Part shown: positions 24,522-54,249 of the stretch, in pieces
Position numbering within the stretch: the first letter of the stretch is position 1
Layout: every line of letters begins with the position of its first letter
Assembly: GCF_988243305.1 (NCBI RefSeq)
Contig: NZ_OZ547136.1
Reading direction: 5' to 3' (one strand)
DNA: 64,000 nt
Translations under genes and position numbers: made by a program
The notes under the pieces: generated by a model
Told to the model about the DNA's origin: nothing
The model's database searches: none
What the model saw: only the letters and a program-made list of their open reading frames with translations

Positions 24522-25479
24522 ATGACAAACTTCACAACCAGCACGCCGCATGACGCATTATTTAAATCCTTTCTCACGCACCCTGACACCGCGCGGGATT
24601 TTATGGAGATCCACTTACCCAAAGATTTACGTGAACTGTGCGATCTCGACAGCTTAAAACTGGAATCCGCAAGCTTCGTCGATGAAAAATTGCGGGCGCT
24701 ACACTCCGATATTCTGTGGTCGGTAAAGACCCGTGAAGGTGATGGTTATATTTACGTAGTGATTGAACATCAGAGCCGCGAGGATATCCATATGGCCTTT
24801 CGCCTGATGCGATATTCCATGGCGGTGATGCAGCGCCATATCGAGCATGATAAACGCCGGCCGCTACCGCTGGTCATCCCGATGCTGTTTTATCACGGTA
24901 GCCGTAGTCCTTATCCCTGGTCTTTGTGCTGGCTGGACGAATTTGCCGACCCGACTACTGCACGGAAGCTTTATACTGCAGCGTTCCCGCTGGTGGATGT
25001 CACTGTCGTGCCGGACGACGAGATTGTGCAGCACCGCAAAGTCGCCCTGTTGGAGTTGATCCAAAAGCATATTCGCCAGCGCGATCTAATGGGACTTACT
25101 TGATCAACTGGCAGTATTACTGGTTACAGGGTGCGCTAATGACAGCCAGATAACCGCGCTGTTAAATTACATTTTACTGACTGGCGATGAAGCGCGTTTT
25201 AAAGAGTTTATCAGCGAACTAACCAGTCGAATGCCACAACAAAGGGAGCGAATAATGACGATTGCAGAGCGAATTCATAATGATGGATGGCTGTTGGGAA
25301 GGGAGAGGGGGAGGAAAGAAGGGAAAGTAGAAGGGGAACGGAGCCTCCTCCGATTGTTGTTGCAGAATGGGGCCGATCCTGAATGGATACAACGATATAC
25401 CGGACTTTCGGCAGAGCAAATGCAGGCATTAGATCAGCCCTTGCCTGAAAGCAAGCGTGATCCATGGATCGAGTACTAA
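24522..25479 (+). pseudogene. rpnD: Rpn-family recombination-promoting nuclease, frameshifted (equivalent of yjiP/yjiQ)
   Basis: N-terminal part in frame 24522..25103 ([29 protein letters not shown]...), C-terminal part continues in another frame to 25479 (...[37 protein letters not shown]...[11 protein letters not shown]...); frame change localised to about 25084-25103. Confidence 0.75.
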
Positions 25480-25578
25480 TCAGAGACGGATGACAAACGC
25501 AAAGCAGCCTGGTGCGCTACGCTTATCAAGTCTACATAACCCATTAAATATATTGAACTTTAAAGATTTTGTAGACCT

Positions 25579-25637
25579 GGTAAGGCGTTCACGCCGCATC
25601 CGGCATGAACGAAGCGCATTTTGCCTAAGCCATGCCG
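25579..25637. repeat. REP-like extragenic palindromic element
   Basis: ggcgttcacgccgcatccggca...gccatgccgg motif between rpnD and yjiR. Confidence 0.5.
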
Positions 25638-25721
25638 GAACGTGGCGATGTCGCTATAAAGATAAAACGAGTTACAGGCGATTCGTGAGAGTAAATCAGG
25701 GGGCTCGGCACTAATTCGAAT

Positions 25722-27310: not shown

Positions 27311-27475
27311 ATGGAATTTCACGAAAACAAAGCCAAAACGCCGTTTATCAGACTTGTGCAACTCTGGCAGGCGGTGAGGCGTTGGCGGCGGCAAATGCAG
27401 GCCCGGCGGGTGTTACAGCAGATGAGTGATGAGCGGTTGAGGGATATTGGGTTACGCAGGGAGGATGTGGAGTGA
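27311..27475 (+). CDS. yjiS: DUF1127 small protein YjiS
   Basis: 54-aa ORF MEFHENKAKTPFIRLVQLWQAVRRWRRQMQARRVLQQMSDERLRDIGLRREDVE with a GAGGAGG Shine-Dalgarno 8 nt upstream; below the 60-aa cut-off of the ORF track, found by reading the sequence. Confidence 0.7.
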   Translation: MEFHENKAKTPFIRLVQLWQAVRRWRRQMQARRVLQQMSDERLRDIGLRREDVE

Positions 27476-27550
27476 TAGAGGATGTTGAGAATAAATCAGG
27501 ATATTAACTTTTTATATGTACCCAGGAAGAAACCAGGGTACATATAGATA

Positions 27551-28264
27551 TTAGTTGAATTTAATATCAGCAATCAATTTTTTGATATAATCTTCTGGTT
27601 TCATCTTTGTTTTTTCTTTTATTTGCTGATAAGTTTCTTTCTTAATGTTGATTTCAATTGTTTTATTTTTATTGATAATGCACGCAATTGGTAATAGTAG
27701 CAATAATGTAATAATTATAATTATAAGAATTATTTTTGAATTTCCATGTGAGTCCGATTCCTTCATTTTTTGGAATATTCTTCTCATGACTGGATTAACT
27801 GCTGAAGAAAACATAATCATAATGATAAAAACAGCCAAAAAATCTAATGTATATTTTGCGTAGTAACTTTCAGTATTCATCTCAAAAAACAGCAACCACG
27901 CCAGAGCACAAAACAATGTCATGCCAAAACATATAAATGAAATAATAAAGCCAATTTGTTGCGTTCTTTTATCTAGTTCAGAGAGAAATTTCTCACCAAC
28001 TCTTTGACCTTTATAAGGTGAAATAAGTGTGTGGGCGGCATTGAAAAATACATTTGTGCAAATCAAAACAAAGAATATATTGATTGGCATAAATCCTATA
28101 AGTGTATAAAAGAAGAAGTCTTGTTGAAGATAGTACGGTAATTGATTATCAACTTCCATTAACAATGTAAATATAAAACCGAAAGAAACATAAAAAAACA
28201 AACCTTCTTCACGTAATTTTTTAATGTATTTTTTGAATTTAAAATCTTTAATCATCTTCAGCAT
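27551..28264 (-). CDS. Uncharacterised AT-rich multi-pass membrane protein immediately downstream of hsdR
   Basis: 237-aa ORF with four to five hydrophobic segments; very AT-rich codon usage unlike the core genes; same strand as the hsdMSR operon, 64 nt after the hsdR stop. Confidence 0.6.
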   Translation of the reverse strand: MLKMIKDFKFKKYIKKLREEGLFFYVSFGFIFTLLMEVDNQLPYYLQQDFFFYTLIGFMPINIFFVLICTNVFFNAAHTLISPYKGQRVGEKFLSELDKRTQQIGFIISFICFGMTLFCALAWLLFFEMNTESYYAKYTLDFLAVFIIMIMFSSAVNPVMRRIFQKMKESDSHGNSKIILIIIIITLLLLLPIACIINKNKTIEINIKKETYQQIKEKTKMKPEDYIKKLIADIKFN

Positions 28265-28328
28265 AGCTATTCCTAATTGTAAACAATATGGCCGGGGTAG
28301 AAAGTGCGACCCCGGCTATCAACGTGTT

Positions 28329-31300
28329 TTATGTTGGCAAAGCAATTTTCCCCGTGAGCATATCAAACATCAGATAAGCAAAGCCCTTTGCCCGAACTGG
28401 ATCGGATAAATATTGCAACATAAATTCTTGCCGAGCGTCATTACTGTCCATTACAGCATTATCAACTGCCTGGAGGAAATCACCAAGAATCGCTTGTTCT
28501 GGCGGATTGTTTTTAATTTGTGTCATAACATTTTCATTTTCAGTTATTTTGTTATACACCGAAAAAGCATTGCTGATCATATCTTTCTCGGTCAAATGGT
28601 CGCTAATGAATAATTCATTCATCCGAGAAAGCACCTGCGATAAAAATTCCTCTTTTTTATCTTTCGCTTTTGCCGTACCAATATCATTACTTGCATCCAG
28701 CGTATAGTCAGGCGTTTCTTCCTGTAAACGTAAATCTTGCTCATGGATTTTCGATAAACGATAGTGACTCATCTCTACATTACTGAGATCAATTTCATCC
28801 TCTTCCAGACGTTGCTCATGCAGCAGCGGACGCAGATGACGGGCAAACAGGCTTAGCTTTTCCAGATCTTTGTCATCGTATTCGACGATCTGCGACATAA
28901 ATTCGTAAAAGCGAACAAAGCTGCCGAGATCTTTTTTGAATATTTCCAGACGATCTTTTTCCTGCTTACAGGCTTTAAAACTGTTTTCCGCATTAGTGAT
29001 TAACACCGTATCGCCCGTTTTTTTGGTGCGCTCGAACATCTCTTTGGCGGTCAGATAAGCGTCTATCGCCATCAGATAACGCTTTTTCCAGCGTTCTACC
29101 GCCGGTTTGCATATATTACTGATCGCTGCATTCGATTTATTTTTGATGAAGAATGCCTCGCAGAACTGCTCGACTTCATGCCACTGAAAGATCTGCGTGG
29201 CGCGCAGTTTTTCAAACAGATCGAAAACCTGCTGCGGATCGCTGACATCGGTCAGTTCCGCCGTCTGGAAATAGGGCTGGAACGCGCCGAGGATCTCGTC
29301 CGGATCGTTATAAAAATCGAGAACAAAAGTGCCTGATTCCGCTTTGCCCGGATAGGTGCGATTCAGGCGGGAGAGCGTCTGCACGCACTCGACGCCGCCG
29401 AGGGCTTTATCCACGTACATCGCGCACAGTTTCGGCTGGTCAAAACCGGTCTGGAATTTATTGGCGACCAACATGACCTGATAATCATCGCTGTCGAAGG
29501 CTTTGCGCATATCCCGCCCTTTCAGGCCGGGGTTCATGTTTATTTCAGTAAATTTCTGGTTTAACAATGCCAGGCTGTTATGGTCGCCTTCCTGGAATTC
29601 AACTTCCCCGGAAAACGCCACCATCGCGCTGATTTTCTGGTAATTGTTCTCGCTAATGTATTTATCAAACGCCAGCTTGTAGCGTACAGCGGCTTTGCGT
29701 GAACTGGTGACCACCATCGCTTTAGCCTGGCCGCCAAGCAGGTGCATCACATGTTTGCGGAAGTGCTCCACAATCACCTTCACCTTCTGCGAGATATTGT
29801 GGTCGTGCAGTGTCACCCACTGGTTGAGCTTAATCTTCGCCCGTTTGCTATCGACTTCGCGGTCTTTGTCTTCCAGCTTTTGCAGCAACTGATACGCCAC
29901 TTTGTAGTTGGTGTAGTTTTTCAGCACGTCGAGGATAAAGCCTTCTTCGATTGCCTGGCGCATGGAGTAGACGTGGAAGGCCTCAGGTTTATTGGTTTTT
30001 GACGCCGGTTCATCGGGACGTGGACGGCGACCAAAAAGTTCGAGGGTTTTGGATTTTGGCGTGGCGGTAAAGGCGTAGTAGTTCAGGTTACTGCTGCCTT
30101 TCCGGGCGGCAATGGTCGCATCCAGAATATCTTCTGACGACAGCACCACGTCATTATCCATTTCTTCGCTCATCAGCACTTCTTTAAGCTGACGGGCGGT
30201 GGAACCGCTCTGCGAGGAGTGCGCTTCGTCGGCAATCACCGCATATTTACGCTGCTTCAGGCTGACGCTGTTTTCGATTGCTTTCAGTACGAATGGGAAC
30301 GTCTGGATGGTGACAATAATGATCGGCTGCGAGTTTTCCAGCGCGCTGGCCAGCTTTTCCGATTTGGAGCCGTCGCCCTCTTTGTTATTGATGCGCCCGA
30401 CCACGCCGTCGGCGTGTTCGAACTGCCAGATGGTGTCCTGAAGCTGGTCGTCCAGCACCGTGCGGTCCGTCACCACGATAATGGAGTGGAACTGTTTTTC
30501 CCCGTTCACGTCGTACAGACGAGAAAGCTGGTGGGCGGTCCAGGCAATGGAGTTCGATTTACCGGAACCGGCGCTGTGCTGGATCAGGTATTTATGGCCG
30601 GTTCCTTCAATCGTCGCGGCCTCCAGCAGTTTGTTGACCACATCCCACTGATGATAACGCGGGAAAATCAGGCTCTCTTTCTTCGCTTTCAGCCCGTTCC
30701 ACTCCTCTTTTTCTTCAATATGCAAATGGACAAAACTGGCGAGGATTTTTAATAAGTTGTCCGGCAGCAGCACTTCATTCCACAGATAATCTGTGGCGTA
30801 GCGGTGGGTATCTTCGGGGATCTCGTTGCCTGCGCCGCCGTCTTTGGTGCCTTTGTTAAACGGCAGGAAGAAGGTGCTGTCACCCGCGAGTTTGGTGGTC
30901 ATAAAGACGTCATACTGGCTGACGGCAAAATGCACCAGCGCGCCGCGCTTAAAGGTCAGCAGCGGTTCCGGTTTATTGGTGGCGGGATCTTTCGGCAGGC
31001 GGGTCTTTTTGTACTGCGCAATGGCGTTCTGCACCGCCTGTTTGAATTCGGATTTCAGCTCCAGCGTGGCAATTGGCAGGCCGTTGATAAACAGCACCAG
31101 GTCGATGCGCCATTTTTTGGCTTTCACGCCCGTTTCTGCAAAGACGCTATTTGAGGCATACGGGCTGTAGACCAGTTCCGGCACGATACGGCAGATATTC
31201 TGCTGATAGCGCGCCAGCGTTTCCGGGTTGAGATTATGTTCCGGTTTAAACTGACACAGCGAAAAACGGGCATTGCGGATTTTCAGTCCGTGGCGAAGTA

Positions 31301-31592
31301 CGCCGAGCGTACCCCAGGTGCGCGACTGGATGTCGGTGGCGTTGCTGTCGGCTTTTTTTAACTGCGCAACCAGCGCGTCGAGGAAATGGCGCTCGGTGTC
31401 GTTGGGGTAAACGCGGGCGAATTTCTCCCACTCCTGTGGTTGGGTGATTTGTACAAAGAGCAGGGCGTCTTGTGCGTATAGCGCACGTTCACGATCGTAG
31501 CCGTCGCCTTTGCCGACAATCCAGCCTTTTGCTGCCATCTGCGCGATGATGTCGTTTTGTAGGTTGACCTCTTTTGCAATGTCGTTGCTCAT
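28329..31592 (-). CDS. hsdR: Type I restriction enzyme R subunit
   Basis: 1087-aa ORF; N-terminal PD-(D/E)xK-type nuclease region (IDLVLFINGLPIATLELK), SF2 helicase Walker A (HSAGSGKSNS) and DEAH box (IADEAHSS); start overlaps hsdS stop (ATGA). Confidence 0.88.
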   Translation of the reverse strand: MSNDIAKEVNLQNDIIAQMAAKGWIVGKGDGYDRERALYAQDALLFVQITQPQEWEKFARVYPNDTERHFLDALVAQLKKADSNATDIQSRTWGTLGVLRHGLKIRNARFSLCQFKPEHNLNPETLARYQQNICRIVPELVYSPYASNSVFAETGVKAKKWRIDLVLFINGLPIATLELKSEFKQAVQNAIAQYKKTRLPKDPATNKPEPLLTFKRGALVHFAVSQYDVFMTTKLAGDSTFFLPFNKGTKDGGAGNEIPEDTHRYATDYLWNEVLLPDNLLKILASFVHLHIEEKEEWNGLKAKKESLIFPRYHQWDVVNKLLEAATIEGTGHKYLIQHSAGSGKSNSIAWTAHQLSRLYDVNGEKQFHSIIVVTDRTVLDDQLQDTIWQFEHADGVVGRINNKEGDGSKSEKLASALENSQPIIIVTIQTFPFVLKAIENSVSLKQRKYAVIADEAHSSQSGSTARQLKEVLMSEEMDNDVVLSSEDILDATIAARKGSSNLNYYAFTATPKSKTLELFGRRPRPDEPASKTNKPEAFHVYSMRQAIEEGFILDVLKNYTNYKVAYQLLQKLEDKDREVDSKRAKIKLNQWVTLHDHNISQKVKVIVEHFRKHVMHLLGGQAKAMVVTSSRKAAVRYKLAFDKYISENNYQKISAMVAFSGEVEFQEGDHNSLALLNQKFTEINMNPGLKGRDMRKAFDSDDYQVMLVANKFQTGFDQPKLCAMYVDKALGGVECVQTLSRLNRTYPGKAESGTFVLDFYNDPDEILGAFQPYFQTAELTDVSDPQQVFDLFEKLRATQIFQWHEVEQFCEAFFIKNKSNAAISNICKPAVERWKKRYLMAIDAYLTAKEMFERTKKTGDTVLITNAENSFKACKQEKDRLEIFKKDLGSFVRFYEFMSQIVEYDDKDLEKLSLFARHLRPLLHEQRLEEDEIDLSNVEMSHYRLSKIHEQDLRLQEETPDYTLDASNDIGTAKAKDKKEEFLSQVLSRMNELFISDHLTEKDMISNAFSVYNKITENENVMTQIKNNPPEQAILGDFLQAVDNAVMDSNDARQEFMLQYLSDPVRAKGFAYLMFDMLTGKIALPT

Positions 31593-32992
31593 GCGCTGGC
31601 CTCCGTGGGTGTTTCTGCTTTGGGGATGGGGGCGGTCCAGTTGCGTAGGTCGATTTTTCCGGTGACGGCAGCGGAGATAAGGGCGGTGCGGCGTTCCTGG
31701 ATTAGCATTATTGCTTGATTGGTTTTAAATATTATGAGATCAATTTGTGCGCATTTTTCATTCAAGGCGTTGACGATTGATTGTGCTTCACCCAATGGGG
31801 GAAATATAAACTTGGTTGTTTTAAAGTCACCTAATGAAACTCTTTTTCTTGTTCCCTCAATACTAATGTTATTAATGGTTTGTCGCCCAAAATTTGAGTT
31901 CAATAGATATGCTATGAAATGTGCATTGAAGGTTTTTTTATTAACTCTTACTCTCATAACATCTTGCGTTATGACAGCATCTGGTTCATTTTTAGGATAA
32001 ACGCACGCTTCTCCTGGGGGATCTCCGACTTTTGAAAAAATCACATCATTTGAGGATAATTTACATATTTCAAGCTGTTGGGCTTTTTGATGAGTAACAT
32101 ATACAGTACTTTTTCTGTTATAACCTGTCGCTTTTATATCTCGAATGTATACGACAGGTACCCCTTCTTCTTTCAATTCACTTGCTAGTAAATCACTTCC
32201 AAATGGCCCATTTACGAAGCATCCTTTAGTTTCATCACCAGTATTGGCTAATTTACTCTTAAACCAGTGGGAGGGTGCTTCGCCTAATCCTGTTAAACCA
32301 GAATCTTTCATCGGCACATCAGGATTTAGCCCTTTGGTCACCGCATGGCTAATCACTGCCTGACGTTTTTCTTTAAGTAGTTCAATGAGTTGTTGTTGTT
32401 TCTCGATCAGGTCATCGATTTTTGCTGTTTCATGATCAAGGAAAAGTGCAATCTTAGAAGATTCATCATTACGAGGTTTTGGGCATTGTATATCGCCTAA
32501 AAGTTCAAGGTTTAAACCGTCTCGTAAATCACCGCCAGCCATGTTACGTATATTCTGATAATTAGAAATGAGCCACCAAAATATATAGCGAGATTGATTC
32601 TTTTTATACAATACAATGGCCGCCATGGATTGGTTACAAGTGGTATTAATACCAAGTTGTGCAACCATACCTTTGGTTTTTCCCTGCCCAGCTAAAGCGA
32701 CAACAAGTGCCCCTTTTGGTATCCACTTGGCACTACTATTTTCAAGTGCAGCGTTAGATATATATGTGGATGGCTCGACTATATAACCTTGATTTACTGC
32801 TCCAGAACTAATCCAGGGAACTGTACCATTCTCCCAATAATCAATAACATTTTTGGAGGGAGTTCCTCCTGCAAAAATATTGGATAGCCACCTCAGCTTA
32901 GTTTTTTTCCAGTTTAGTGGTAATTCATTACACCACTCCATCCCAGAATCCCTATACTCCGGATACGCCTGATATTTATTTAACCCCGCCAT
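31589..32992 (-). CDS. hsdS: Type I restriction-modification specificity subunit (two target-recognition domains)
   Basis: 467-aa ORF between hsdM and hsdR with overlapping stop/start codons on both sides; two-TRD architecture with central and C-terminal conserved helices, as expected for HsdS. Confidence 0.8.
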   Translation of the reverse strand: MAGLNKYQAYPEYRDSGMEWCNELPLNWKKTKLRWLSNIFAGGTPSKNVIDYWENGTVPWISSGAVNQGYIVEPSTYISNAALENSSAKWIPKGALVVALAGQGKTKGMVAQLGINTTCNQSMAAIVLYKKNQSRYIFWWLISNYQNIRNMAGGDLRDGLNLELLGDIQCPKPRNDESSKIALFLDHETAKIDDLIEKQQQLIELLKEKRQAVISHAVTKGLNPDVPMKDSGLTGLGEAPSHWFKSKLANTGDETKGCFVNGPFGSDLLASELKEEGVPVVYIRDIKATGYNRKSTVYVTHQKAQQLEICKLSSNDVIFSKVGDPPGEACVYPKNEPDAVITQDVMRVRVNKKTFNAHFIAYLLNSNFGRQTINNISIEGTRKRVSLGDFKTTKFIFPPLGEAQSIVNALNEKCAQIDLIIFKTNQAIMLIQERRTALISAAVTGKIDLRNWTAPIPKAETPTEASA

Positions 32993-35337
32993 CAGGAATG
33001 TACCTCCTGCAACAGTTTCATAATCTCAGCGCTTACCGCATCCAAATCAGCATCAATCTCCTCCAACGGTCGCGGCGGTGTATAAACATAAAAATGACGA
33101 TTAAACGGAATTTCATACCCCACAATCCCGATATCCCCATCTTTCGCATCGCGTTTATCGGCATTGATCCACGCATCCGCAACATGCGGCAATACTTCCG
33201 CTTTGAAGTAATCCTCGATCAACTCGTTGGTAGATACCGCCGGATTTAACGGCACATTCTCGTTATCACGCAGGTCGCCATCCGATTCAAACTCCACAAC
33301 CTTTCCGTGGTACTCAAACGCGCCGTACAGCGGTTGGGGCGCTTCTTTCAGAACCTTGCTGATTACCGGCTCGGCGTCCGGGTTTTTGCGGGTGATAGCA
33401 TCGATAAACTGCTTGTTCTCTTTCGCATCCAGCTTCACGCCTGCGGTTCTGAGCGCCTCTTTCAGCGTCAACTGGAACTGATTAAAGTCATTGCTAACAG
33501 TCTCTTTGCCACCCGCCAGCATCCTCATCGCTGCCTGAATACGCCGCGCTTTTTCCATTAACCCGCGCTGGGCCAGCCATAATTTGCTGTCGAGCAGATC
33601 TTTAATTTGCTTCTCTTTCAGCTCGCTAAAATCGGCTTTAAGAATGGCGCGGGCTTCACTTTCTACCGCTGTTAAGTCGCCGTAATTACCGTCCTGCCAC
33701 TGGAAAGCAAAGGCGTCATACAGTTGCGCCATCGGCGCGTTAAACGGCTTCGGCGCAAAGCGCAATGTGGCAATGGCGTCATCACTTATCTGAGCCGACA
33801 GGCGTAACGGGCGCTCAACGGTGATGCGACGATAGCCAAACTCGGTGCTGTGAAAGACTTTGCTGGCAAAGGTTTTTGCCGCCTCGGTTTTGGTTGTTGC
33901 GGGCTGGCGTCCCCGGCTGGATTTTTGTTCGGGTGCTTTCTCCAGGCCTAACGCCGCAAGCGTAGTGGTGGCAACGGGTTCGAAATCGCCAAACGTGCGG
34001 GTGATTAAACCAATATCCTCCTCCCCGAGAATATTACGTTTTGATCCCAGCGATTTACGCATCTTTCCGCACAGGTTGCTGCCGTCGATTAGCTGGACTT
34101 TACCTTTGCGTTCTGGCGCTTTTTTGTTAGACAGCACCCAAACATAGGTAGCGATACCGGTGTTGTAAAACATATCGGTGGGCAGGGCGATAATGCCTTC
34201 CAGCAAATCCGCTTCCAGAATGTAGCGGCGGATCTCGCTTTCACCGCTGCCTGCGCCGCCGGTGAATAACGGCGAACCATTAAGAATGATGCCGATCCGT
34301 CCGCCACCGCTTTTGGCATCGCGCATTTTGCTGATCAGATGCAGCAGAAACAGCAACGAACCGTCGGAGACTCGGGGCAGGCCGGGGCCAAAGCGACCAT
34401 CAGCACCTTTGAGTTTGTGCTCGTTGTTGATGTCGGTTTCTATCTTTTTCCAGTCCACGCCGAAAGGTGGATTAGAGAGCATGTAATCGAATTTTTCTGC
34501 GGGGAGCTGATCGTTGGAAAGGGTGTTGCCGAGTTTGATAAGGCTGACATCCTGGCCCTTAATCAGCATGTCGGCTTTGCAGATGGCGTAGGATTCCGGG
34601 TTTAACTCCTGACCAAACGCGCGCATCACGGCATTGGGGTTTTGTTTGTGGACGTACTCCATGCCGGAGGAGAGAAAGCCGCCGGTTCCCGCCGTTGGGT
34701 CGTAAATGGTGCGAATGATACCGTCTTTATTGAGTGCATCATCATCATCGAAAAACACCAGCGAGGTGGTCAGATTGACGATATCACGCGGGGTAAAGTG
34801 CTCCCCGGCGGTTTCGTTAGAACTCTCGGCAAAACGTCGGATCAGCTCCTCAAATACCAGCCCCATATCGTGGTTGGTGACGTGCTCCGGGTATAAATCT
34901 GCTTTAGCGAATATTTGCACCACTTTGAACAGTAAGTTTGCATCCGCCAGCTGTCCGACAAACTCGCTGAACTTGAAGTGTTCGAAAATTTCGCGGGCAT
35001 CCGAAGAGAACGACTGGATGTAGTTTTCCAGGTTGTCCTGTATGCCATTTTGCCCCATTTTGCTGAGATCCATCGCTGAGGCATTGAAGAACGTGAGGCC
35101 ATTAGTCGCCCGCAGGATCATTTTCTCCTGGGCTTCCTCCGGCAGTTTCATGGCTTTTACTTTTTGCGCCTCGGTAATGACCGCGTCTTTCGTTGTTTCG
35201 AGTACGCATTCCAGACGACGCAAAAGGGTAAAAGGAAGAATAATTCGTCCATATTGTGATTGTTTAAAATCGCCGCGTAACAGGTCGGCGACAGACCACA
35301 GGAAGGCTGCAATCTGGCTGAAATTAGTTGATGACAT
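32992..35337 (-). CDS. hsdM: Type I restriction-modification N6-adenine DNA methyltransferase subunit (long form)
   Basis: About 781 aa from the ATG at 35337 (AGGA 9-12 nt upstream; an in-frame ATG also exists at 35346); SAM-binding ([10 protein letters not shown]) and catalytic NPPF motifs; long C-terminal extension. Confidence 0.88.
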
Positions 35338-35621
35338 AAAAAGCATTCCTTGCCCTGAAAAAGAGGGGGATATTCAATGTGAAGTGAATGCTTTGTTATA
35401 TCAAACTATTGCTGTGATGATCAAAAACACGATCATTTTCAATACGTTATAAATATGAATTGGAAATATTAATTGTTCTAATGAATGCGTGTTGAGGTGT
35501 TTCTTAATATATTTTGATTTATCCTGGAATGGTATTTTTGCAGAAACAAAGACGCTAACTTTTATTTTTTATTCGCAGCATAATGACGCCGTTTGCCAGT
35601 GCAATTTGACAGGAGTCATTC

Positions 35622-37721
35622 ATGAAAGCCACCGAAGCCCGATTACTCGATTTTCTAAAACGCTCTCAGCAATTCGTTATTCCCATTTATCAGCGTACTT
35701 ATTCATGGTCAGAGGAACAGTGCCGCCAGCTCTGGGACGATGTAATACGTGCCGGGCAGCGTGATGATATCCCGGCGCATTTTATCGGCTCGGTGGTGTA
35801 TATCGAACAGGGCCTATATCAGGTTTCGGGGATCTCTCCCTTACTGGTGATTGACGGTCAGCAACGCCTGACAACGGCGATGTTATTGCTGGAAGCGTTG
35901 TCCAGACACCTTGGCGATGACGAGGTGATGGATGGTTTCTCCGCCATGAAATTACGAAACTATTATCTGCTCAATCCGTATGAATCGGGCGAGCGTGGAT
36001 TTAAGTTACTGCTTACGCAAACGGACAGAGAGAGCCTGCTGGCATTGATTAGACAAAAACCGCTGGCAGAAAATTGCTCTCTACGCGTGAAAGAGAATTT
36101 TGAGTTTTTCCATGAGCAAATAGGCAAACTCCACGGCAATTTCACCGCGTTATGTCAGGGCCTTTCCAAACTGCTGATTGTGGATGTCGCCTTGAATCGC
36201 GGTCAGGATAATCCGCAACTAATCTTTGAAAGCATGAACTCAACAGGAAAAGCGCTGAGTCAGGCGGATCTAGTACGCAACTATGTTCTGATGGGGCTGG
36301 AGCCAGAACATCAAAGCCAACTGTACGACGATTACTGGCGGCCCATGGAGCTGGCGTTTGGTCAGAAGGGATACACTGACTATTTCGACAGTTTTATGCG
36401 TAATTACCTGACGGTAAAAACAGGTGAGATTCCGCGAATTGGTGATGTCTATGAAGCCTTTAAACGCTATGCGCGAAAACCTGGCGTAATAGATAGCGGG
36501 ATGGAGGCGCTGGTTGCGGATATTCGTACCTATGCGGATTATTTTTGTGCGATGGCGCTGGATAGCGAAAAAGACAAAATATTAAAGATGGCGTTTCAGG
36601 ATCTACGTGAGCTGAAAGTCGATGCCGCCTGGCCGTTCCTGTTGGTGCTTTATCACGACTATAAACAGGGAATTCTTTCTGCCGCGGATTTTTTAAGTGC
36701 CACGCGTTTAATTGAGTCGTATATCTTCCGGCGCGCAGTCTGTGCCATTCCCACTAACTCATTTACTAAAACCTTCGCCACGTTTTACAAAGTGCTGGAT
36801 AAAGAGCGTTATCTGGAGAGCATTGCGGCACATTTGCTGGAACTGCCTTCCTACCGTCGTTTCCCGGATGATGATGAATTTCAACGTGAACTGAAAACTC
36901 GCGACCTCTACAACTTCCGTAATCGCAGCTATTGGCTACGTAGATTTGAAAACCACGATCGTAAAGAACGGGCCTATGTTGACACTTATACGATTGAACA
37001 TATCATGCCGCAGAACCCTAATTTATCGGCGAAGTGGCGCGATGACCTTGGTCCGGAATGGAAGCGAATCCATAAAAAGTGGCTCCATACGTTGGGTAAT
37101 TTAACGTTAACTGGCTATAACTCAAGCTACAGCGACCGTCCATTTGCGAAGAAGCGAGATATAAAAGGTGGCTTTAAGGAAAGTCCATTACGCCTGAACA
37201 CGGGGTTAGGGCAATGTGAAATATGGGATCGTGCAGCGATACAAAAGAGAGCGGAACGTCTGTCCGAGCTGGCAATAGACGTCTGGGCGATCCCCAAACT
37301 TTCGGAAGACGTGTTGGCTCGTTATCGCACCGTCGTTGAACGAGGAACGGGATATGTCCTTGCTGATTTCCCGCAACTTGAAGAAGGTACGCACATCCGC
37401 GTACTTTTTGACAGCCTTTCTGATGCCGTTATGACGCTGGACGCTGGGGTTACGCGAGAAATATTGAAGCTCTATGTTGCCTTCAAAGCGGAGACGAATT
37501 TTGTTGATGTGGTGCCGCAAAAAAGTCGCTTACGTTTATCACTAAATATGCCATTCCATGAACTGGTTGACCCAAAATGTATGGCTAAAGATGTCACAGA
37601 TATAGGCCGTTGGGGCAATGGCGATGTTGAAATAGGTTTCAGCGATCTTTCTGAGCTTCCTTATGTGATGGGATTAATTCGTCAGGCATTTGAAAAGCAG
37701 ATGGATAACGCGATGGTTTAA
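35622..37721 (+). CDS. GmrSD-like DUF262/DUF1524 protein (putative modification-dependent Type IV restriction endonuclease, BrxU/SspE-like)
   Basis: 699-aa ORF; N-terminal DUF262/ParB-like NTPase motifs (IPIYQRTYSW...VIDGQQRLTT); central His-Me/HNH-like DUF1524 region (YTIEHIMPQNPN...W...HTLGNLTL); AGGAG Shine-Dalgarno; divergent from hsdM. Confidence 0.8.
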   Translation: MKATEARLLDFLKRSQQFVIPIYQRTYSWSEEQCRQLWDDVIRAGQRDDIPAHFIGSVVYIEQGLYQVSGISPLLVIDGQQRLTTAMLLLEALSRHLGDDEVMDGFSAMKLRNYYLLNPYESGERGFKLLLTQTDRESLLALIRQKPLAENCSLRVKENFEFFHEQIGKLHGNFTALCQGLSKLLIVDVALNRGQDNPQLIFESMNSTGKALSQADLVRNYVLMGLEPEHQSQLYDDYWRPMELAFGQKGYTDYFDSFMRNYLTVKTGEIPRIGDVYEAFKRYARKPGVIDSGMEALVADIRTYADYFCAMALDSEKDKILKMAFQDLRELKVDAAWPFLLVLYHDYKQGILSAADFLSATRLIESYIFRRAVCAIPTNSFTKTFATFYKVLDKERYLESIAAHLLELPSYRRFPDDDEFQRELKTRDLYNFRNRSYWLRRFENHDRKERAYVDTYTIEHIMPQNPNLSAKWRDDLGPEWKRIHKKWLHTLGNLTLTGYNSSYSDRPFAKKRDIKGGFKESPLRLNTGLGQCEIWDRAAIQKRAERLSELAIDVWAIPKLSEDVLARYRTVVERGTGYVLADFPQLEEGTHIRVLFDSLSDAVMTLDAGVTREILKLYVAFKAETNFVDVVPQKSRLRLSLNMPFHELVDPKCMAKDVTDIGRWGNGDVEIGFSDLSELPYVMGLIRQAFEKQMDNAMV

Positions 37722-37764
37722 TATGGAATAATATCCTCTTTACCATGCAATCAAGGATCCTCTA

Positions 37765-38499
37765 ATGACAACCAAACTACTGGACCTGAGCTGGAATGCA
37801 AATGCCATCCCGGCGATGCAAATTGTCGGTACGCGCGCGGCCTTGTTTACCTTCAAAACGCATATGGCAGGGTTTGTCTGGGATGCCGCGCAACTGGAAA
37901 ATAACCCCTATACCTTTGTTGAAGTTAAAACGCTGCTCGATGGCGTCACCGTTGGCGGGCATAAGGTCAGTGATACTGAGCAGGTGTTGAACCTGGCAGA
38001 TAGCGCAAAAAAACTGATTGAACTTGTGCAATCCGGGCGTTTCGATCTTGATAAGAAAACGTTCACGTTGCTTAACGGCATTATTGCGCGTAATGAGGCG
38101 CTGGAGTGGGGCGTTTTTCGCGGCGAAGGTGATGAGTTACATTACAATGCGCGCGTTCACCTCGGCGAGTTGGGCACCCATTTCCCACCAGCCACAGAAG
38201 CAGGTGCACCTGAACTGAATCGAATATTCGCCGCAGGTGTGGCACAAATAAAAGAGATGCCACCGTTCGAAGGGGCGCTGGCAATGTTTTTATTTGGTGC
38301 TTATTTTCAGTTTTTCTTTGATGGCAACAAGCGTACCAGTCGCCATATGATGAACGGCTGGTTAATGCGCCACGGTTACAATCCCATTAGTGTACCCGCA
38401 GCTCGTGCGCTGGAGTTCAACAGCAAAATGGTGCGCTTTTATCACAGCAAAGATGCCAGTGAAATGATGGCATTTTTGGTGGATTGCTATCAGGTTTGA
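37765..38499 (+). CDS. Fic/Doc-like protein with non-canonical active-site motif (Q-x-F-x-DGNKR)
   Basis: 244-aa ORF; segment AMFLFGAYFQFFFDGNKRTSRHMMNGWLMRHGYNPISV matches the Fic/Doc core (HxFx(D/E)GN(G/K)RxxR ... LL.RHGY.P) except that His is replaced (Gln/Phe); starts 44 nt after the GmrSD-like gene with AAGGA Shine-Dalgarno. Confidence 0.6.
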   Translation: MTTKLLDLSWNANAIPAMQIVGTRAALFTFKTHMAGFVWDAAQLENNPYTFVEVKTLLDGVTVGGHKVSDTEQVLNLADSAKKLIELVQSGRFDLDKKTFTLLNGIIARNEALEWGVFRGEGDELHYNARVHLGELGTHFPPATEAGAPELNRIFAAGVAQIKEMPPFEGALAMFLFGAYFQFFFDGNKRTSRHMMNGWLMRHGYNPISVPAARALEFNSKMVRFYHSKDASEMMAFLVDCYQV

Positions 38500-38637
38500 A
38501 TAAGTGCTGGATGGTGTCCCAATGCTGCCATCCAGCCCCTTCATATCAACTTCCCTATCTTTTCCTAAAACGTGATGCTATTTCCAACATTCGAATCATC
38601 AGTGCACGAAAAGCAGATCGTAAAGAGAGGAATCGCT

Positions 38638-38940
38638 ATGAGCATGGTTAAACATAAACGAGGGACCTCCTCTACACTCGATGTGCAGCATGAGGCCGAA
38701 TTGAAGGCGCTGGCGAATAAATTCGACGAAGAGATTGATTACAGCGATATCCCACCTTCCAGCGATGAGCAATGGTCTAACGCAGAACGCGGTAAGTTTT
38801 ATCGGCCATTGAAAACCCAGGCTTCGGTGCGTATTGATGCTGATGTGATGGAATGGCTGAAGCGACCTGGTAAAGGCTATCAAACTCGCCTGAACGCAAT
38901 TTTACGTGAAGCGATGCTGCGCGATCAGAACAAAAAATAA
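38638..38940 (+). CDS. BrnA-like (COG3514) ribbon-helix-helix antitoxin-family protein
   Basis: 100-aa product from the ATG at 38638 (AGAGAGG Shine-Dalgarno); C-terminal RIDADVMEWLKRPGKGYQTRLNAILREAM resembles the BrnA antitoxin signature; no BrnT-like (DUF497) partner ORF adjacent. Confidence 0.65.
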   Translation: MSMVKHKRGTSSTLDVQHEAELKALANKFDEEIDYSDIPPSSDEQWSNAERGKFYRPLKTQASVRIDADVMEWLKRPGKGYQTRLNAILREAMLRDQNKK

Positions 38941-38973
38941 TTCAGGCCGCCACATGGCGGCCATCATCCAAAA

Positions 38974-39930
38974 TTACTTCCTCAACCCCGCAAACGCCGC
39001 CCGAATCTCATCCTCCGGCAGCTGAATCCCGATAAACACCATCGTGCTATGCGGTTTTTCATCGCCCCACGGCCTGTCCCAGTCGGCGCTGTAGAGGCGC
39101 TGGACGCCCTGGAACAGCAGGCGGTTAGGTTCGCCGTCAATCCACAGCATCCCTTTGTAACGCAGCAGTTTATCTGCCGATTCCAGCAGCAGGTTTTCCA
39201 TCACGCGGGAAACTTCGCTGATATCTACCGGGTAATCCAGTTCCACCACAATCGACGAAATATCGTTTTGTTTATCCGCGATAAAGTGGAAACGCGGTTT
39301 GGTGCTGACGACGTTTTCTTCCAGCATAAAACCGTTGGTGTTGAACAACAGGCCCAGGTCGATGTCGCCGTGGGTGACGGTGTAGACCGGCGCGCGGGCG
39401 TTGATGCGTGCCAGACGTTCACGCAGTTTCTCTGCTTCGCCTGCGACGTCGGTTTTAGTCAGCAGAATACGGTCGGCGTAGCCAACCTGGGACTGGGCGA
39501 TGGTGAACTGGTTCATCTGCTCATCGGCATGTACCGCATCCACCAGCGCAATCACGCCGTCCAGCAGGTAGCGCTGGCATAAAATCTCATGGGAGAAAAA
39601 GGTCTGAATAATCGGGCCAGGATCGGCCATGCCGGTGCATTCAATGACCAGACGGTCGAACTGAATATTGCCCTTGTCGAGATTGTCCAGCAGGTCGAGT
39701 AGCGCGTCCTCCAGCTCGTTGGAGCGCGAACAGCAGATGCAGCCGTTGGTCAGCGTTTTGATCTGCGTGGCGCGGTCGCCAATCAGTTGATCATCAACGG
39801 AGACTTCGCCGAATTCGTTTTCAATCACGGCAATCTTGTAGCCGTGTTGTTCGTTAAGAATATGGCGCAGCAGGGTAGTTTTGCCCGCGCCTAAAAAACC
39901 GGTGAGTAGGGTCACTGCAATCGGGTTCAT
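38974..39930 (-). CDS. yjiA: CobW/P47K-family GTPase YjiA
   Basis: 318-aa product from MNPIAVTLLTGFLGAGKTTLL (P-loop); GGAGAG Shine-Dalgarno; the track ORF start is an upstream in-frame extension. Confidence 0.88.
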   Translation of the reverse strand: MNPIAVTLLTGFLGAGKTTLLRHILNEQHGYKIAVIENEFGEVSVDDQLIGDRATQIKTLTNGCICCSRSNELEDALLDLLDNLDKGNIQFDRLVIECTGMADPGPIIQTFFSHEILCQRYLLDGVIALVDAVHADEQMNQFTIAQSQVGYADRILLTKTDVAGEAEKLRERLARINARAPVYTVTHGDIDLGLLFNTNGFMLEENVVSTKPRFHFIADKQNDISSIVVELDYPVDISEVSRVMENLLLESADKLLRYKGMLWIDGEPNRLLFQGVQRLYSADWDRPWGDEKPHSTMVFIGIQLPEDEIRAAFAGLRK

Positions 39931-42344: not shown

Positions 42345-42736
42345 AGTAAAACCTGGCATTTTACTCGTCGTCTTTTGGCTTACAGGTGCGGCAGCTGCGT
42401 TCGTTCACCCCTGTCACTTACTGTTGTAAGCTCCCGGGGATTCACTCACTTGCTGCCTTCCTGCAAACCAAAATCCATAGAGTAATTTGTTAATCATAGG
42501 CCGAAGCCGTTCTAGGTTTGCGTTGCGTTTGAGGAGGTAAATTGACCGCTATCCTGCAGTGATGTTGCCAGAGATACGCGCGCGTAAAGTAAGGTAAATA
42601 ACTGAGTGGTTATTTTAGGGATGTAAGCGGTCAGGAATGGCGGTGAGCGGTTGGGCAAGAATTATTCATCGGGTGGATATGTGATTGAGATCACAATAAA
42701 AATGCCCCTTCGACGAATGCGTGAAGGGGCTGGAGC

Positions 42737-43249
42737 TTAAATCGCAGCTTCCATTTCCAGCATCACCGGATGGAAACGGCGTTTAAAGTAGATAAGTCCG
42801 TGACCTTCTGCACTGAGGATGATGTTTTTAATCTCCACCAGATACACCAGATGTGTGCCAATTGCCTGCACATCGCGGATCTCACCTTCAAGACTGGCCA
42901 GCGAACCTTTTAGCACCGGCTGCGCCAGCGGACCTTTTTGCCAGCATGAGAGGCTAAAACGCTCTTCCATCGCCATGCCTGTCATGCCCGCGAAGTGGCG
43001 TGCCATCAGTTCCTGCTCATGGTTGAGGACGTTGACGCACAACTTGCCGTTGCCCTGAAAAACCGGGTTCATCGCACTGTTGGCGTTAATGCACACCATC
43101 AGCGACGGTGGTGTATCCGTGACCGAGCAGACAGCCGTTGCCGTAATCCCGCATTGTCCGGCGTCGCCCTCGGTGGTGATAATATTTACCGCTGCCGACA
43201 GGCTGGCCATTGCGTCACGAAAGCGCAGGCGTTGTTCATCTAATTGCAT
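42737..43249 (-). CDS. hpaC: 4-hydroxyphenylacetate 3-monooxygenase, flavin reductase component
   Basis: 170-aa flavin-reductase-fold ORF immediately downstream of hpaB. Confidence 0.9.
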   Translation of the reverse strand: MQLDEQRLRFRDAMASLSAAVNIITTEGDAGQCGITATAVCSVTDTPPSLMVCINANSAMNPVFQGNGKLCVNVLNHEQELMARHFAGMTGMAMEERFSLSCWQKGPLAQPVLKGSLASLEGEIRDVQAIGTHLVYLVEIKNIILSAEGHGLIYFKRRFHPVMLEMEAAI

Positions 43250-43266
43250 CTTAACCTCCTGCTGCG

Positions 43267-44829
43267 TTATTTCAGCAGCTTATCCAGCATGTTGATATCG
43301 TCGTTGTTGTGCAGGTGCGGCACAGTCCAGCCGTTCTGGTCGTATTCCGACAGGCAGCGATCAACCATCGCCATCATCTTGTCCATATTGCCGGAGCTTT
43401 GTGCCTGGCGCAGACACTGCAGGCGAATCTCATCCTGGCTACCGGAGTAGTTGATTTCATACAGTTCGTGACGACCACCAAATTCGCTGCCAATAGCATC
43501 CCACATCAGTTTGAGGATCTTGATGCGCTGGACGTGATCCATACCGTTCGAACCGCGCACATACTTCGCCAGATACTGGTCGATCTGCGGATTGTTCAGG
43601 TCACGGGCACTGGAAGGGAGATAGATCAGGCCACTGGTAACGTTGCGTTCGATAATGTTTTTGATCTTCGCGTAGGCCATTGGTGCCAGTACGCGATAGG
43701 TTTGCAGTGCGGCATGATCCGGTAAATAAGCCCCGTTGACCCACGGCGTCGCTTCTGAACACATCGAGTCACTCAATGCCCAGAAGGTGTTGCGCCACGC
43801 CACCACTTCACCGAGATCGGCCTGCACACCACGGAACTCCAGGGTGCCGGTACATTCGAGTGATTTTTTCAGCAGTGCCGTAATGAAGTCGAGTTTCACT
43901 GCCAGGCGCACACAGGCTTGCAGCGGATACATACGGGCGAAACCGCCTTCCATCGTCCAGCGACGGCAGCGATCAAAATCGCGGTAGATCAGCACGTTTT
44001 CCCATGGGATCAGCACGTTATCCATCACCAGAATCGCATCGTTCTCATCGAAGCGGCTGGAGAGCGGGTAGTCGTACGGCGAGCCGGTAGCACCCGCGAC
44101 CATCTCATAAGAGGCGCGGGAGATTAATTTCACGCCATCGGCATCCATTGGCGCAACGAACATCAGTGCGAAGTCCGGGTTTTCGCCCATCACTTGTGCC
44201 GAGCCGAAGCCAATCATGTTGTAGTGAGTCAGCGCCGAGTTGGTGGCAACCACTTTCGCACCGCTGACGATAATCCCGGCGTCAATCTCTTTTTCCAGCT
44301 TGATGTAAACGTCTTTCACTTTATCGGTCGGCAAATGACGATCAATCGGTGGGTTAACAATCGCGTGGTTAAAGTAGAGGCCAGTTTCCTGAATACGGGT
44401 GTACCAGTTACGGGCGTTCTGCTCGAACTGACCGTAAAAGCCCGGATTCGCGCCCAGTGCGCAACCGAAAGCAGCCTTGTAGTCTGGGGTACGGCCCATC
44501 CAGCCATAGCTCAGGCGTGACCACTCAGCGATGGCGTCGCGTTGCTGGCGCAGGTCGTCGGCACTTTTCGCCACGCGGAAGAATTTATGGGTATAGCCGC
44601 CGCTGCCGGTGTCGGTGTTCCAACACAGAGAGTCCTGCATCTCCGGTTTGTGCAGCGCGTCGTACAGTTGGGCAACAGACGCTGCCGCATTACGAAATGC
44701 CGGATGAGTGGTGACGTCTTTCACTCGCTCGCCATAGATATAGATCTCGCGACCATCCTGCAGGCTTTTCAGATACTCTTCCCCGGTGAACGGACGTTGG
44801 GTACTGGCGCGGAAATCTTCTGGTTTCAT
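43267..44829 (-). CDS. hpaB: 4-hydroxyphenylacetate 3-monooxygenase, oxygenase component
   Basis: 520-aa ORF recognised as HpaB (FADH2-dependent two-component monooxygenase large subunit). Confidence 0.92.
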   Translation of the reverse strand: MKPEDFRASTQRPFTGEEYLKSLQDGREIYIYGERVKDVTTHPAFRNAAASVAQLYDALHKPEMQDSLCWNTDTGSGGYTHKFFRVAKSADDLRQQRDAIAEWSRLSYGWMGRTPDYKAAFGCALGANPGFYGQFEQNARNWYTRIQETGLYFNHAIVNPPIDRHLPTDKVKDVYIKLEKEIDAGIIVSGAKVVATNSALTHYNMIGFGSAQVMGENPDFALMFVAPMDADGVKLISRASYEMVAGATGSPYDYPLSSRFDENDAILVMDNVLIPWENVLIYRDFDRCRRWTMEGGFARMYPLQACVRLAVKLDFITALLKKSLECTGTLEFRGVQADLGEVVAWRNTFWALSDSMCSEATPWVNGAYLPDHAALQTYRVLAPMAYAKIKNIIERNVTSGLIYLPSSARDLNNPQIDQYLAKYVRGSNGMDHVQRIKILKLMWDAIGSEFGGRHELYEINYSGSQDEIRLQCLRQAQSSGNMDKMMAMVDRCLSEYDQNGWTVPHLHNNDDINMLDKLLK

Positions 44830-45055
44830 GTCGACCTCTACAGTATTAATCGGAATACGATTGTTAATTTTGTGTGTTGTTTTTGTTATTCAATTGAATC
44901 GTTGAACGCGGTTGTCGGGAAGAGACGTTTCAGGCGAACGTTGGTACTTTTCGCCAGCAAGGTGGAGTTAAATAGTAAACTGCGATCGTGATCAACTTAC
45001 AGTAAGGCAAATCATAATATTCCCCGCTAACAAGGGCTAACGGGGACGGAATTGT

Positions 45056-45994
45056 TTATGGGGCGAATGGAATGGTAATCGTCATATTTTCATGACCAAC
45101 GACGATAGGGCCTGAATAGTTTTTCTGTGCTTCTTGCTTCCATGTTTCATCCGGAACGGTGATTGGTACCAGGTGGCTAAGGATGAGTTTTTTCACTTTT
45201 GCTTCATTGGCAATTTTGCCTACATCCTCAATAGTCGTATGGTGAGAAGCAATGGCTTTTGCCAGTGTTTTACCATTGCCAATACTGTCTGCCAGCTTAG
45301 CGACGGAGGGCTCATGTACGGCCTCATGCACAAGTATATCAGCGCCTTCTGAGAAAGTTGCCAGTGGGGGAAAGTACGAGGTATCTCCTGAGAAGACAAT
45401 TCGCTTGCCTTGTGTGTCGAAGCGATAAGCAAAAGCCTCACCGTCAGGGAAAGGAGAATGAGGAACCTTTAATGCAGTCACGGTCACGGTATCATCTTTA
45501 TAAACTACGCCTTCACCAACATCTTGAGCTGTAACGAGCTTGCGAGGATCGGGTTTTCCTTCTTCTTCCATACGCAGTGTGATGTCCCGATCGAAGACCT
45601 GCCAACTGGCAGCGGTCATGGCTCGGGTACCTGGCGGACCGAACACATGAATATTTTTGTCCTGCAGACCGCTAGCCCATGCATTCATTAAGACTGAGGG
45701 ATAGTCCAGAATATGATCACTGTGTAAATGGGTGAGTAAAATATTATCAATCTGGCGCAGTGGAATATTATTTTTTACCAGTTGTAAGCTGGCCCCGTAA
45801 CCAGCATCAATTAACCATGTTTTATTGCCAATAATAAGTGCCGTTGCCATCGGCAAACGGTCAGCTTTTAATAAAGAAGGGCCACCTTTCGTTCCAAGTA
45901 GTACAATTTTCATTTCTTGCAGTTCGGAGGCGTAGGTGAATGCCACTGGCGCAATCAGGCACGCCACAAATAGTGAGCGTAAAGATATTTTCAT
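45056..45994 (-). CDS. Metallo-beta-lactamase-fold hydrolase with signal peptide (function unknown)
   Basis: 312-aa product from MKISLRSLFVACLIAPVAFTYA (signal-peptide-like); HxHxDH motif (THLHSDH); lies between hpaA and hpaB. Confidence 0.75.
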   Translation of the reverse strand: MKISLRSLFVACLIAPVAFTYASELQEMKIVLLGTKGGPSLLKADRLPMATALIIGNKTWLIDAGYGASLQLVKNNIPLRQIDNILLTHLHSDHILDYPSVLMNAWASGLQDKNIHVFGPPGTRAMTAASWQVFDRDITLRMEEEGKPDPRKLVTAQDVGEGVVYKDDTVTVTALKVPHSPFPDGEAFAYRFDTQGKRIVFSGDTSYFPPLATFSEGADILVHEAVHEPSVAKLADSIGNGKTLAKAIASHHTTIEDVGKIANEAKVKKLILSHLVPITVPDETWKQEAQKNYSGPIVVGHENMTITIPFAP

Positions 45995-46020
45995 GTCGAG
46001 TCTCTCAGGTTGATAAATGG

Positions 46021-46914
46021 TCAGCGACCACGGAATTGTGTTGGTGAGCAACCCATCATTCGGTTGAAAAAACGGGCGAAATAGGCGGGATCTTTGTAGC
46101 CAAGATCAAGGGCAATCTGGTTGATGCTTTGCTCGCTATAGAGCAGAAGCCGTCTGGCTTCCCGGCTCATTCGTTCGAAAATCAATCTCTTCGGCGATTG
46201 ATTGGCAAAACGTCGGCATAGCTCGGTAAGCCGTGATTCACTCATACCGAGCATTGCTGCATATTCAGGGACCATTAAATGTTGGCGATAATTTTCGTCA
46301 ATCAGCCGATTAAACTTCTGGAATAAACACATCTCGCCGCGCACGCTGCATGTTGAAATATCATTTGGTGGTGCTTCACGCAGTAGGATTGTAAAAATAC
46401 TTTGCGCCAGTGATTGCAATAGAATTTCCCGTCCTGGCTTATTTTGTTGAAACTCCAGGGATATTATCGGCCAATAATGATTTAATGCCGCCAGTGTATG
46501 TTCCATTCCCTCCAGCGACAGACAGATACCTTGTAGCATTGCGGCATCTCCACTACCAGGCCAGAGCTTTTCTACCAGGGGCCAAATTAACTCCTGACGT
46601 ACGGTCAGAACATGCCCGTCGCTATCAGGCTCAGTAAAGAAAGTATGTGGCACCGATGGTGGTGTTAGTACAAAAAGCGGTGCGCGCACAGAATAGAAGT
46701 GCTCATCCAGCTGTAAAGTAATGCGTCCAGTGACCAGATAATGGAGTTGAAAATATCTATCGTGCCAGTGAGGGCGCATATCGCGTCCAAAGAAATTCGC
46801 TAACCTGGCAAATGTTTCATAATGCACATCTTCACCAGCGTAGCGGGCATCATATTCCCGGACCAAATCAATATTTTCATAACCATGTTCAAAGATAGCT
46901 TCACTGGACATCAT
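46021..46914 (-). CDS. hpaA: AraC/XylS-family activator of hpaBC
   Basis: 297-aa ORF with N-terminal cupin-like sensor and C-terminal AraC-type HTH (QIALDLGYKDPAYFARFFNRMMGCSPTQFR). Confidence 0.85.
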   Translation of the reverse strand: MMSSEAIFEHGYENIDLVREYDARYAGEDVHYETFARLANFFGRDMRPHWHDRYFQLHYLVTGRITLQLDEHFYSVRAPLFVLTPPSVPHTFFTEPDSDGHVLTVRQELIWPLVEKLWPGSGDAAMLQGICLSLEGMEHTLAALNHYWPIISLEFQQNKPGREILLQSLAQSIFTILLREAPPNDISTCSVRGEMCLFQKFNRLIDENYRQHLMVPEYAAMLGMSESRLTELCRRFANQSPKRLIFERMSREARRLLLYSEQSINQIALDLGYKDPAYFARFFNRMMGCSPTQFRGR

Positions 46915-46920
46915 GACTCC

Positions 46921-48288: not shown

Positions 48289-48297
48289 ATCGTACGT

Positions 48298-49101: not shown

Positions 49102-49111
49102 CGTTCTCTCC

Positions 49112-49915: not shown

Positions 49916-49982
49916 GGCGATATCCTGTGGCATTGCCGGATGCGGCTGCGCCTTATCATCCGGCCTGGAAGCTGGTACAAAT

Positions 49983-50363: not shown

Positions 50364-50372
50364 GGTGGTTCC

Positions 50373-51224: not shown

Positions 51225-51225
51225 A

Positions 51226-53978: not shown

Positions 53979-54249
53979 TACCACTCCTCGGATTCGATCA
54001 TCTTAATCATTAATATGTTAATGATTACTTTTATTCCCGATTGCGTAGTTTGGCAAAAGTAAGTGATGTAAATGTGATCTAATTAACAAACTATTTACAT
54101 TTGCAGGTAATAAAATACTAAATATCAGTAAGTTAATAAAGTATGCTCAATTTTGATAAAATGAGGAATTGCGGGGATAGCTCAGTCCCGGTAACGTGAT
54201 GATTAACTGTTTCTATATTAATGATTTTGAATTTTTCAGGGGAAAGATA

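Follow-up and report, generated by a model that had tools for sequence, protein, structure and literature searches.

Intragenic toxin-antitoxin systems of the RpnL/RpnS type, which are also anti-phage systems, have been described for RpnA, RpnB, RpnC and RpnP2 (Zhong 2023, PNAS, PMC10400941). RpnS is the cognate antitoxin and blocks RpnL by binding via the C-terminal helix that the two proteins share. Specificity is set by how many four-residue repeats this helix contains; their number varies between strains, and the repeats start 8-20 residues past the internal Met (Zhong 2023, PMC10400941). All five K-12 rpn genes, the amber-broken rpnD included, possess an internal transcription and translation start, and all five RpnS proteins were detected in K-12, where long forms were detected only for RpnB, RpnC and RpnE (Zhong 2023, PMC10400941). 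Some loci encode RpnS as a separate gene, and rpn genes are enriched near defence genes (Zhong 2023, PMC10400941). On the side of the nuclease, mutation of D11, D63, E82, Q84 and R94 in RpnA abolished or altered activity, the PDDEI motif is identical across all K-12 Rpn proteins, and RpnD without its last 45 residues has much reduced activity (Kingston 2017, PMC5350276). YjiP, the product of rpnD, is complete in most E. coli, and the K-12 copy carries a point mutation that leads to a premature stop (Kingston 2015, PMC4498929). The gene rpnD encodes a PD-(D/E)XK 'recombination-promoting nuclease'; on current understanding, this nuclease acts as the toxin in a gene-within-a-gene toxin-antitoxin and anti-phage system.

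We analyzed a stretch of DNA of 64,000 nucleotides (hereafter the window), in which positions 24522-25479 on the plus strand hold the rpnD (yjiP) orthologue, flanked by mdtM and yjiR. The locus resembles the RpnL/RpnS systems (Zhong 2023) in its PD-(D/E)XK long protein, its internal Shine-Dalgarno sequence and ATG, which have the Glu-to-Met spacing of the validated RpnA_S start and lie where the 7TH0 match predicts, four-residue repeats 11 residues after the internal Met, and a defence island alongside. It differs in that the toxin frame is broken, which leaves at most the antitoxin half. We hold it very likely that this rpnD carries a heritable one-base insertion that would leave the long nuclease (RpnD_L) non-functional or strongly impaired, while the internal small ORF (RpnD_S) would still be expressed as an orphan antitoxin. 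The case is one of known biology, an ordinary pseudogene at the level of strains, and public records already list its products as pairs of 'hypothetical proteins'. Annotation of the lineage would be better served by a frameshifted rpnD pseudogene plus a separate intact RpnD_S ORF than by two such 'hypothetical proteins'.

Identity of the gene and its two reading frames

To place the gene among known alleles, we searched the 5,426 complete RefSeq E. coli genomes with a 1.2-kb query and found the rpnD locus in 4,245 of them, at 90-99.7% identity. In the matched genomes rpnD is always annotated as 'Rpn family recombination-promoting nuclease/putative transposase', and the order mdtM-rpnD-yjiR is invariant; the window has the same order. 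Because of this synteny with mdtM and yjiR and the high nucleotide identity to annotated alleles, the gene in the window is identified as the rpnD (yjiP) orthologue. It is a member of the Rpn/YhgA-like nuclease family by descent, but a pseudogene for the long product. The closest allele is that of E. coli NY1601, in which rpnD is intact (957 nt, 318 aa, WP_021564836.1). The gene sits at the edge of the immigration control region. Among annotation resources for defence systems, PADLOC includes no Rpn model.

The features of the broken gene are as follows.

24522..25479, plus strand: rpnD (yjiP) orthologue with the frameshift, 958 nt long (intact alleles: 957 nt)
24522..25103, plus strand: N-terminal ORF of 193 aa with an ATG start, ending ...RDLMGLT and the stop TGA at 25101-25103
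25099, plus strand: lesion, one inserted C, with codon 193 onward shifted (alignments against intact alleles)
25101..25103, plus strand: premature TGA resulting from the frameshift (sequence and ORF translation)
25090..25479, plus strand: C-terminal part of rpnD in the +1 frame, with TAA at 25477-25479; RpnA model positions 191-291

The preliminary description of this DNA, made from the letters and their ORFs, had reported an Rpn/YhgA-like gene at the rpnD locus, with N- and C-terminal parts in different frames and the break at 25084-25103. The family assignment agrees with the synteny and with PF04754 (Transposase_31/YhgA-like), which matches the N-terminal ORF over profile positions 1-184 of 203 (E=1.4e-83, 279.9 bits, cut-off 21); the gene also matches TIGR01784 (127.9 bits, cut-off 52.1). 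The two frames are recovered by the ORFs themselves and by two further comparisons. In the RpnA model of NCBIfam (NF007361, 292 positions), positions 3-191 align with the N-terminal ORF and positions 191-291 with the +1-frame segment (E=5e-20). Because these alignments abut without loss or overlap, the two pieces are adjoining halves of a single Rpn protein, and no part of it is lost between them. Likewise, in a tblastn comparison of the 318-aa NY1601 protein with the window, one frame yields residues 1-192 with 100% identity and the other yields residues 192-318 with 99.2%. Judged by these alignments, the split of one Rpn gene into two frames is far beyond chance. As the N-terminal ORF ends at 25103 and the +1 frame is open from 25090, the change of frame falls within 25090-25100, inside the interval given earlier.

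The inserted C at position 25099

Alignment to intact alleles and to K-12 rpnD, the latter a comparison that the preliminary description had proposed, pins the indel to exactly one extra C at 25099. The window reads GGACTTA[C]TTGATC where NY1601 reads GGACTTATTGATC, and the extra C occupies alignment column 578. It is the only difference between the window and NY1601 across the whole of rpnD, and it does not stand in a homopolymer (TTA[C]TTG). The two alleles share the locus, 100% nucleotide identity barring this one base, the catalytic residues and the repeat number; they differ in that NY1601 has no extra C, whereas the long product in the window is cut at residue 193. Because the rest of the gene is unchanged, with zero secondary decay, the mutation is, by this measure, recent. 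Even so, it already occurs with several flanking haplotypes and in hundreds of public assemblies.

Public records outside the complete genomes contain the allele many times. The exact 193-aa product with its frameshift-specific Thr193 is recorded on 299 contigs (NCBI, ENA, Logan), and a position index of a public protein collection places it in 422 blocks. All four loci that were read (L006-L009) carry the extra C. Three of these (L007-L009) contain GGACTTACTTGATC, and their flanks differ from those of the window by 0.08%, 0.8% and 1.3%. Apart from the C, positions 24418-25511 are identical in the window, in these three loci and in NY1601, and the intergenic flanks of rpnD hold six differences per side, in differing combinations among haplotypes. 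Because the flanks vary around an identical tract, the allele must occur on no fewer than two or three recombinant backgrounds. Together with its flanks, 24418-25511 forms a short recombination mosaic around rpnD, beside the variable restriction island.

Complete and representative genomes gave a different picture. The 61-mer spanning the insertion occurs in 0 of the 5,426 complete RefSeq E. coli genomes, and the insertion motif has zero matches in species-representative genomes. A search for the lineage of the window in the complete RefSeq E. coli genomes returned a best match of 98.5% over 20 kb. Since no complete RefSeq genome has the allele, the lineage is represented only by draft, metagenome or other records. 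A metagenome scan found a single contig, OAQU01000003.1, which matches the window at 100% identity along 8.1 kb; we did not count it as independent support because it is probably from the same source or clone.

These observations bear on two other accounts of the break. One is that the extra C is a sequencing or assembly miscall and that the strain truly has an intact 318-aa rpnD, as might be supposed from a gene that is otherwise identical to an intact allele and from the absence of the C in all complete RefSeq genomes. Against a miscall, independent sources give the same frameshift product on 299 contigs and in 422 blocks, and the flanking haplotypes differ among the loci that were read; the TTA[C]TTG context offers no homopolymer. 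Among the genes shared with NY1601, the window also holds no further frameshifted one. In tblastn, the remaining NY1601 genes with a counterpart in the window gave single full-length matches with no change of frame, and rpnD alone was split, so this is not an error-prone assembly. (NY1601 was dropped as a near-isogenic reference for counting errors, its identity outside rpnD being 98.7%, and gene integrity in tblastn was used instead.) We give the miscall hardly any credence: the +C at 25099 is, on these comparisons, a real and heritable mutation, and an error is very unlikely. The earlier view that the break is inherited and not an error is thus upheld by the recurrence of the product, by the C in all four loci and by the otherwise intact genes of the window.

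The other account is that the lesion is the same as that of K-12 yjiP/yjiQ, through a shared ancestral inactivation. Both genomes do have a broken rpnD at the same locus, with a broken long product and an open 3' small ORF, and RefSeq lists the K-12 gene among its pseudogenes, noting an 'internal stop'. Alignment refutes the shared origin. The K-12 gene has CAG>TAG at codon 104 and lacks the indel at codon 193, whereas the window has CAG at codon 104 and the extra C at 193. Moreover, the two alleles are only about 92% identical, the K-12 allele has 12 fewer residues (three repeats) in the variable region, and the K-12 lesion was reported as a point mutation (Kingston 2015, PMC4498929). An exact 61-mer of that lesion is found in 338 complete genomes. 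The inactivations in the window and in K-12 are independent, and we attach practically no probability to a common origin. The preliminary description had drawn a parallel with K-12. It was right that the K-12 gene is a pseudogene, but the independent change at codon 104 lends no support to inheritance; since the lesions are independent and the allele nearest to the window, that of NY1601, is intact, the parallel is worthless as evidence on that point. The lesion in the window should not be equated with that of K-12.

Fate of the long and the small product

The N-terminal ORF retains the following sites, all at RpnA numbering.

24552-24554 (D11), 24708-24710 (D63), 24765-24767 (E82), 24771-24773 (Q84) and 24801-24803 (R94), plus strand: codons of the PD-(D/E)XK core (translation)
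25011..25025, plus strand: PDDEI motif, residues 164-168 (translation)

All the catalytic residues defined in RpnA, together with PDDEI, are therefore present in the 193-aa ORF. About 125 residues are missing, made up of the final 18 positions of PF04754 and the complete variable C-terminal tail, which carries the dimerisation and RpnS-binding helix. The +C at codon 193 brings a stop three bases later, and the cell would then make only the 193-aa fragment. Because about 125 residues are lost, while RpnD lacking only 45 is already much weaker, the long nuclease RpnD_L is probably non-functional or strongly impaired. If so, this copy of rpnD would no longer provide nuclease-based defence or toxicity. 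The 'inactivation' of the preliminary description accordingly needs narrowing: it applies to the long product, while the small ORF RpnD_S (25255-25479) is untouched.

Two ways in which nuclease activity might persist have to be weighed. Ribosomes could restore some full-length RpnD_L (I193T or I193L), as a low-dose toxin, by leaky or programmed +1 frameshifting at CUU-ACU-UGA, where one U would be skipped at the in-frame stop. The stop lies three bases past the insertion, a shift at ACU/U-GAU would rejoin the native frame at the cost of one substitution, and a weak Shine-Dalgarno-like GGGA stands 3 nt upstream of ACU. The frameshift site of prfB, CUU-UGA-C, is loosely resembled by the ACU-UGA of the window with its upstream GGGA. 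Compared with a programmed site of the prfB type, however, ACU re-pairs poorly on CUU, the Shine-Dalgarno-like complementarity is limited to the 4 nt of GGGA, and RNA folding around the shift site gave no local structure (z=+0.43). The site is also newly mutated and not conserved; the ancestral allele and most others, being intact, are unshifted. We regard such a rescue as quite improbable.

The 193-aa fragment might instead be an active nuclease that works with a separately encoded RpnD_S, much like the separate rpnS genes reported at some loci (Zhong 2023, PMC10400941). The retention of every catalytic residue and of PDDEI is compatible with such a split system, and the +C allele is common. 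Published RpnL proteins, however, keep their own C-terminal domain for the binding of RpnS. A fragment that lacks this domain would escape regulation and, if active, should be toxic. The much weaker activity of RpnD after the loss of a mere 45 residues also speaks against an active fragment, and with zero further changes in the gene there has been no time to adapt. A functional split system is therefore improbable, and a non-functional or strongly impaired RpnD_L remains the preferred reading.

The small ORF lies wholly downstream of the lesion, with these features.

25255..25479, plus strand: RpnD_S, intact small ORF of 74 aa, putative intragenic antitoxin, within an 82-aa ORF
25243..25248, plus strand: Shine-Dalgarno sequence AGGGAG, 6 nt upstream of the ATG at 25255
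25139..25168, plus strand: candidate internal promoter ATGACA-18 nt-TAAATT, with TG; its consensus match is at chance level for the region
25288..25335, plus strand: region of four-amino-acid repeats, hypervariable between alleles (allele alignments)

The exact 74-aa RpnD_S product is called as a gene of its own on 436 contigs. The matches that would relate it to the RpnS domain, which has three helices and is HTH-like, are weak but fall in the right place: it matches positions 221-271 of TIGR01784 (E=1e-4), its residues 17-60 match residues 5-48 of the RpnA_S crystal structure 7TH0 (E=0.01), and a precomputed match to PF27070 (HTH_Rpn_C) is likewise weak. A Pfam scan of the 74-aa protein gave no significant match. 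The spacing from Glu to Met is three residues (E242 to M245), the same as from E241 to M244 in RpnA, the residues mutated by Zhong 2023. Taking the offset of the 7TH0 match and allowing for the extra 12-residue repeats, M245 would stand opposite the first residue of RpnA_S.

The repeats begin 11 residues after M245, and the window has their longest form. Intact rpnD alleles are 306, 310, 314 or 318 aa long, and their lengths vary in steps of 12 nt at 25288-25335; this variation is the repeat-number polymorphism published by Zhong 2023. Residues 26-44 of RpnD_S (window 25330-25385) contain a motif that resembles the ankyrin-repeat consensus. Matches to designed ankyrin proteins in the PDB outranked the true match to RpnA_S and were set aside as spurious artefacts of this short motif.

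As RpnS is detected in K-12 despite the amber-broken rpnD, RpnD_S is probably still made from the window allele, as an orphan antitoxin. The gene carries zero substitutions, and there is no selection signal on RpnD_S.

Other rpnD alleles and the neighbourhood of the locus

Of ten rpnD alleles sampled, four are disrupted, each differently.

Window allele: +C at 25099, codon 193; 422 collection blocks
K-12 allele: CAG>TAG at codon 104; 338 complete genomes (exact 61-mer)
E1624 and CP027328.1 allele: 125-nt ERIC-like insertion after rpnD nt 450; 735 collection blocks
O157:H7 F8492 allele: 25-nt tandem duplication at codon about 254, with the RpnD_S start codon duplicated

In E1624 (L012 324-1393) and at L016-L018 (890-1971), the 125-nt ERIC-like element (…GTGAATCCCCAGGAGCTTACAAAAGTAAGTGACTGGGGTGA…) is inserted at a point that corresponds to about 24971 in the window, and the insertion is identical in CP027328.1. 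Its 156-aa C-terminal product is the one found in the 735 collection blocks, which makes this disrupted allele even commoner than that of the window. In O157:H7 F8492 (L010 323-1280), a 25-nt tandem duplication, CGATTGCAGAGCGAATTCATAATGA, puts rpnD out of frame at a point that corresponds to about 25255-25290 of the window. The duplication copies the start codon of RpnD_S and its first 8 codons, and the second copy opens a complete RpnD_S ORF. The related allele of O55:H7 CB9615 has no duplication and is intact, with 310 aa. A 67-mer count of the O157:H7 duplication was discarded because both halves match unduplicated genomes.

The O157:H7 and E1624/CP027328.1 alleles are thus, like that of the window, independent knock-outs of RpnD_L with an uninterrupted RpnD_S ORF, but they arose by other mechanisms and elsewhere in the gene, at codon about 254 in the first and nt 450 in the second, the lesion of the window being at codon 193. 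At least three further independent rpnD lesions circulate in E. coli besides that of the window, and the RpnD_S ORF is uninterrupted in all four disrupted alleles. The gene seems to lose its toxin half repeatedly, with the antitoxin ORF persisting. A rather unlikely interpretation, which we nevertheless mention, is that the recurrent knock-out of RpnD_L with RpnD_S left open reflects selection to shed a toxic nuclease and keep an orphan antitoxin. Were this true, orphan RpnD_S could neutralise incoming RpnD_L alleles of equal repeat number, or have a function of its own. The pattern across the species bears on two alternatives: chromosomal Rpn systems may decay as other toxin-antitoxin modules do, or orphan RpnS proteins may be retained for some purpose.

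Around the gene, the rpnD-yjiR intergenic region (25480-25721) contains REP-type palindromic elements, and six haplotype SNPs cluster there. An Rfam search returned nothing inside rpnD and only sub-threshold REP-type matches downstream (ES036 at 25528-25570 on the minus strand, 26 bits; naRNA4 at 25574-25610, 22 bits).

Downstream of yjiR and yjiS, the immigration-control region of the window (27475-38974) differs from that of NY1601. It holds a type I restriction-modification system on the minus strand (R 28329-31592, S 31589-32992, M 32992-35346), the proteins of which are 21-28% identical to those of NY1601, a 699-aa GmrSD or type IV-like gene at 35622-37721, and unassigned ORFs (27551-28264 and 37765-38499). 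A counterpart of mrr was not found in this region of the window. The restriction genes near rpnD agree with the reported enrichment of rpn genes near defence genes.

Farther along, in the btsT-tsr interval, a 12-kb block (42650-54754) that is missing in NY1601 contains a 4-hydroxyphenylacetate (hpa) catabolic cluster. It encodes an HpaB/HpaC-like oxygenase and reductase, a LigB-type dioxygenase, an aldehyde dehydrogenase, an HpcH/HpaI aldolase, an AraC regulator and an MFS transporter, and is an ordinary accessory cluster.
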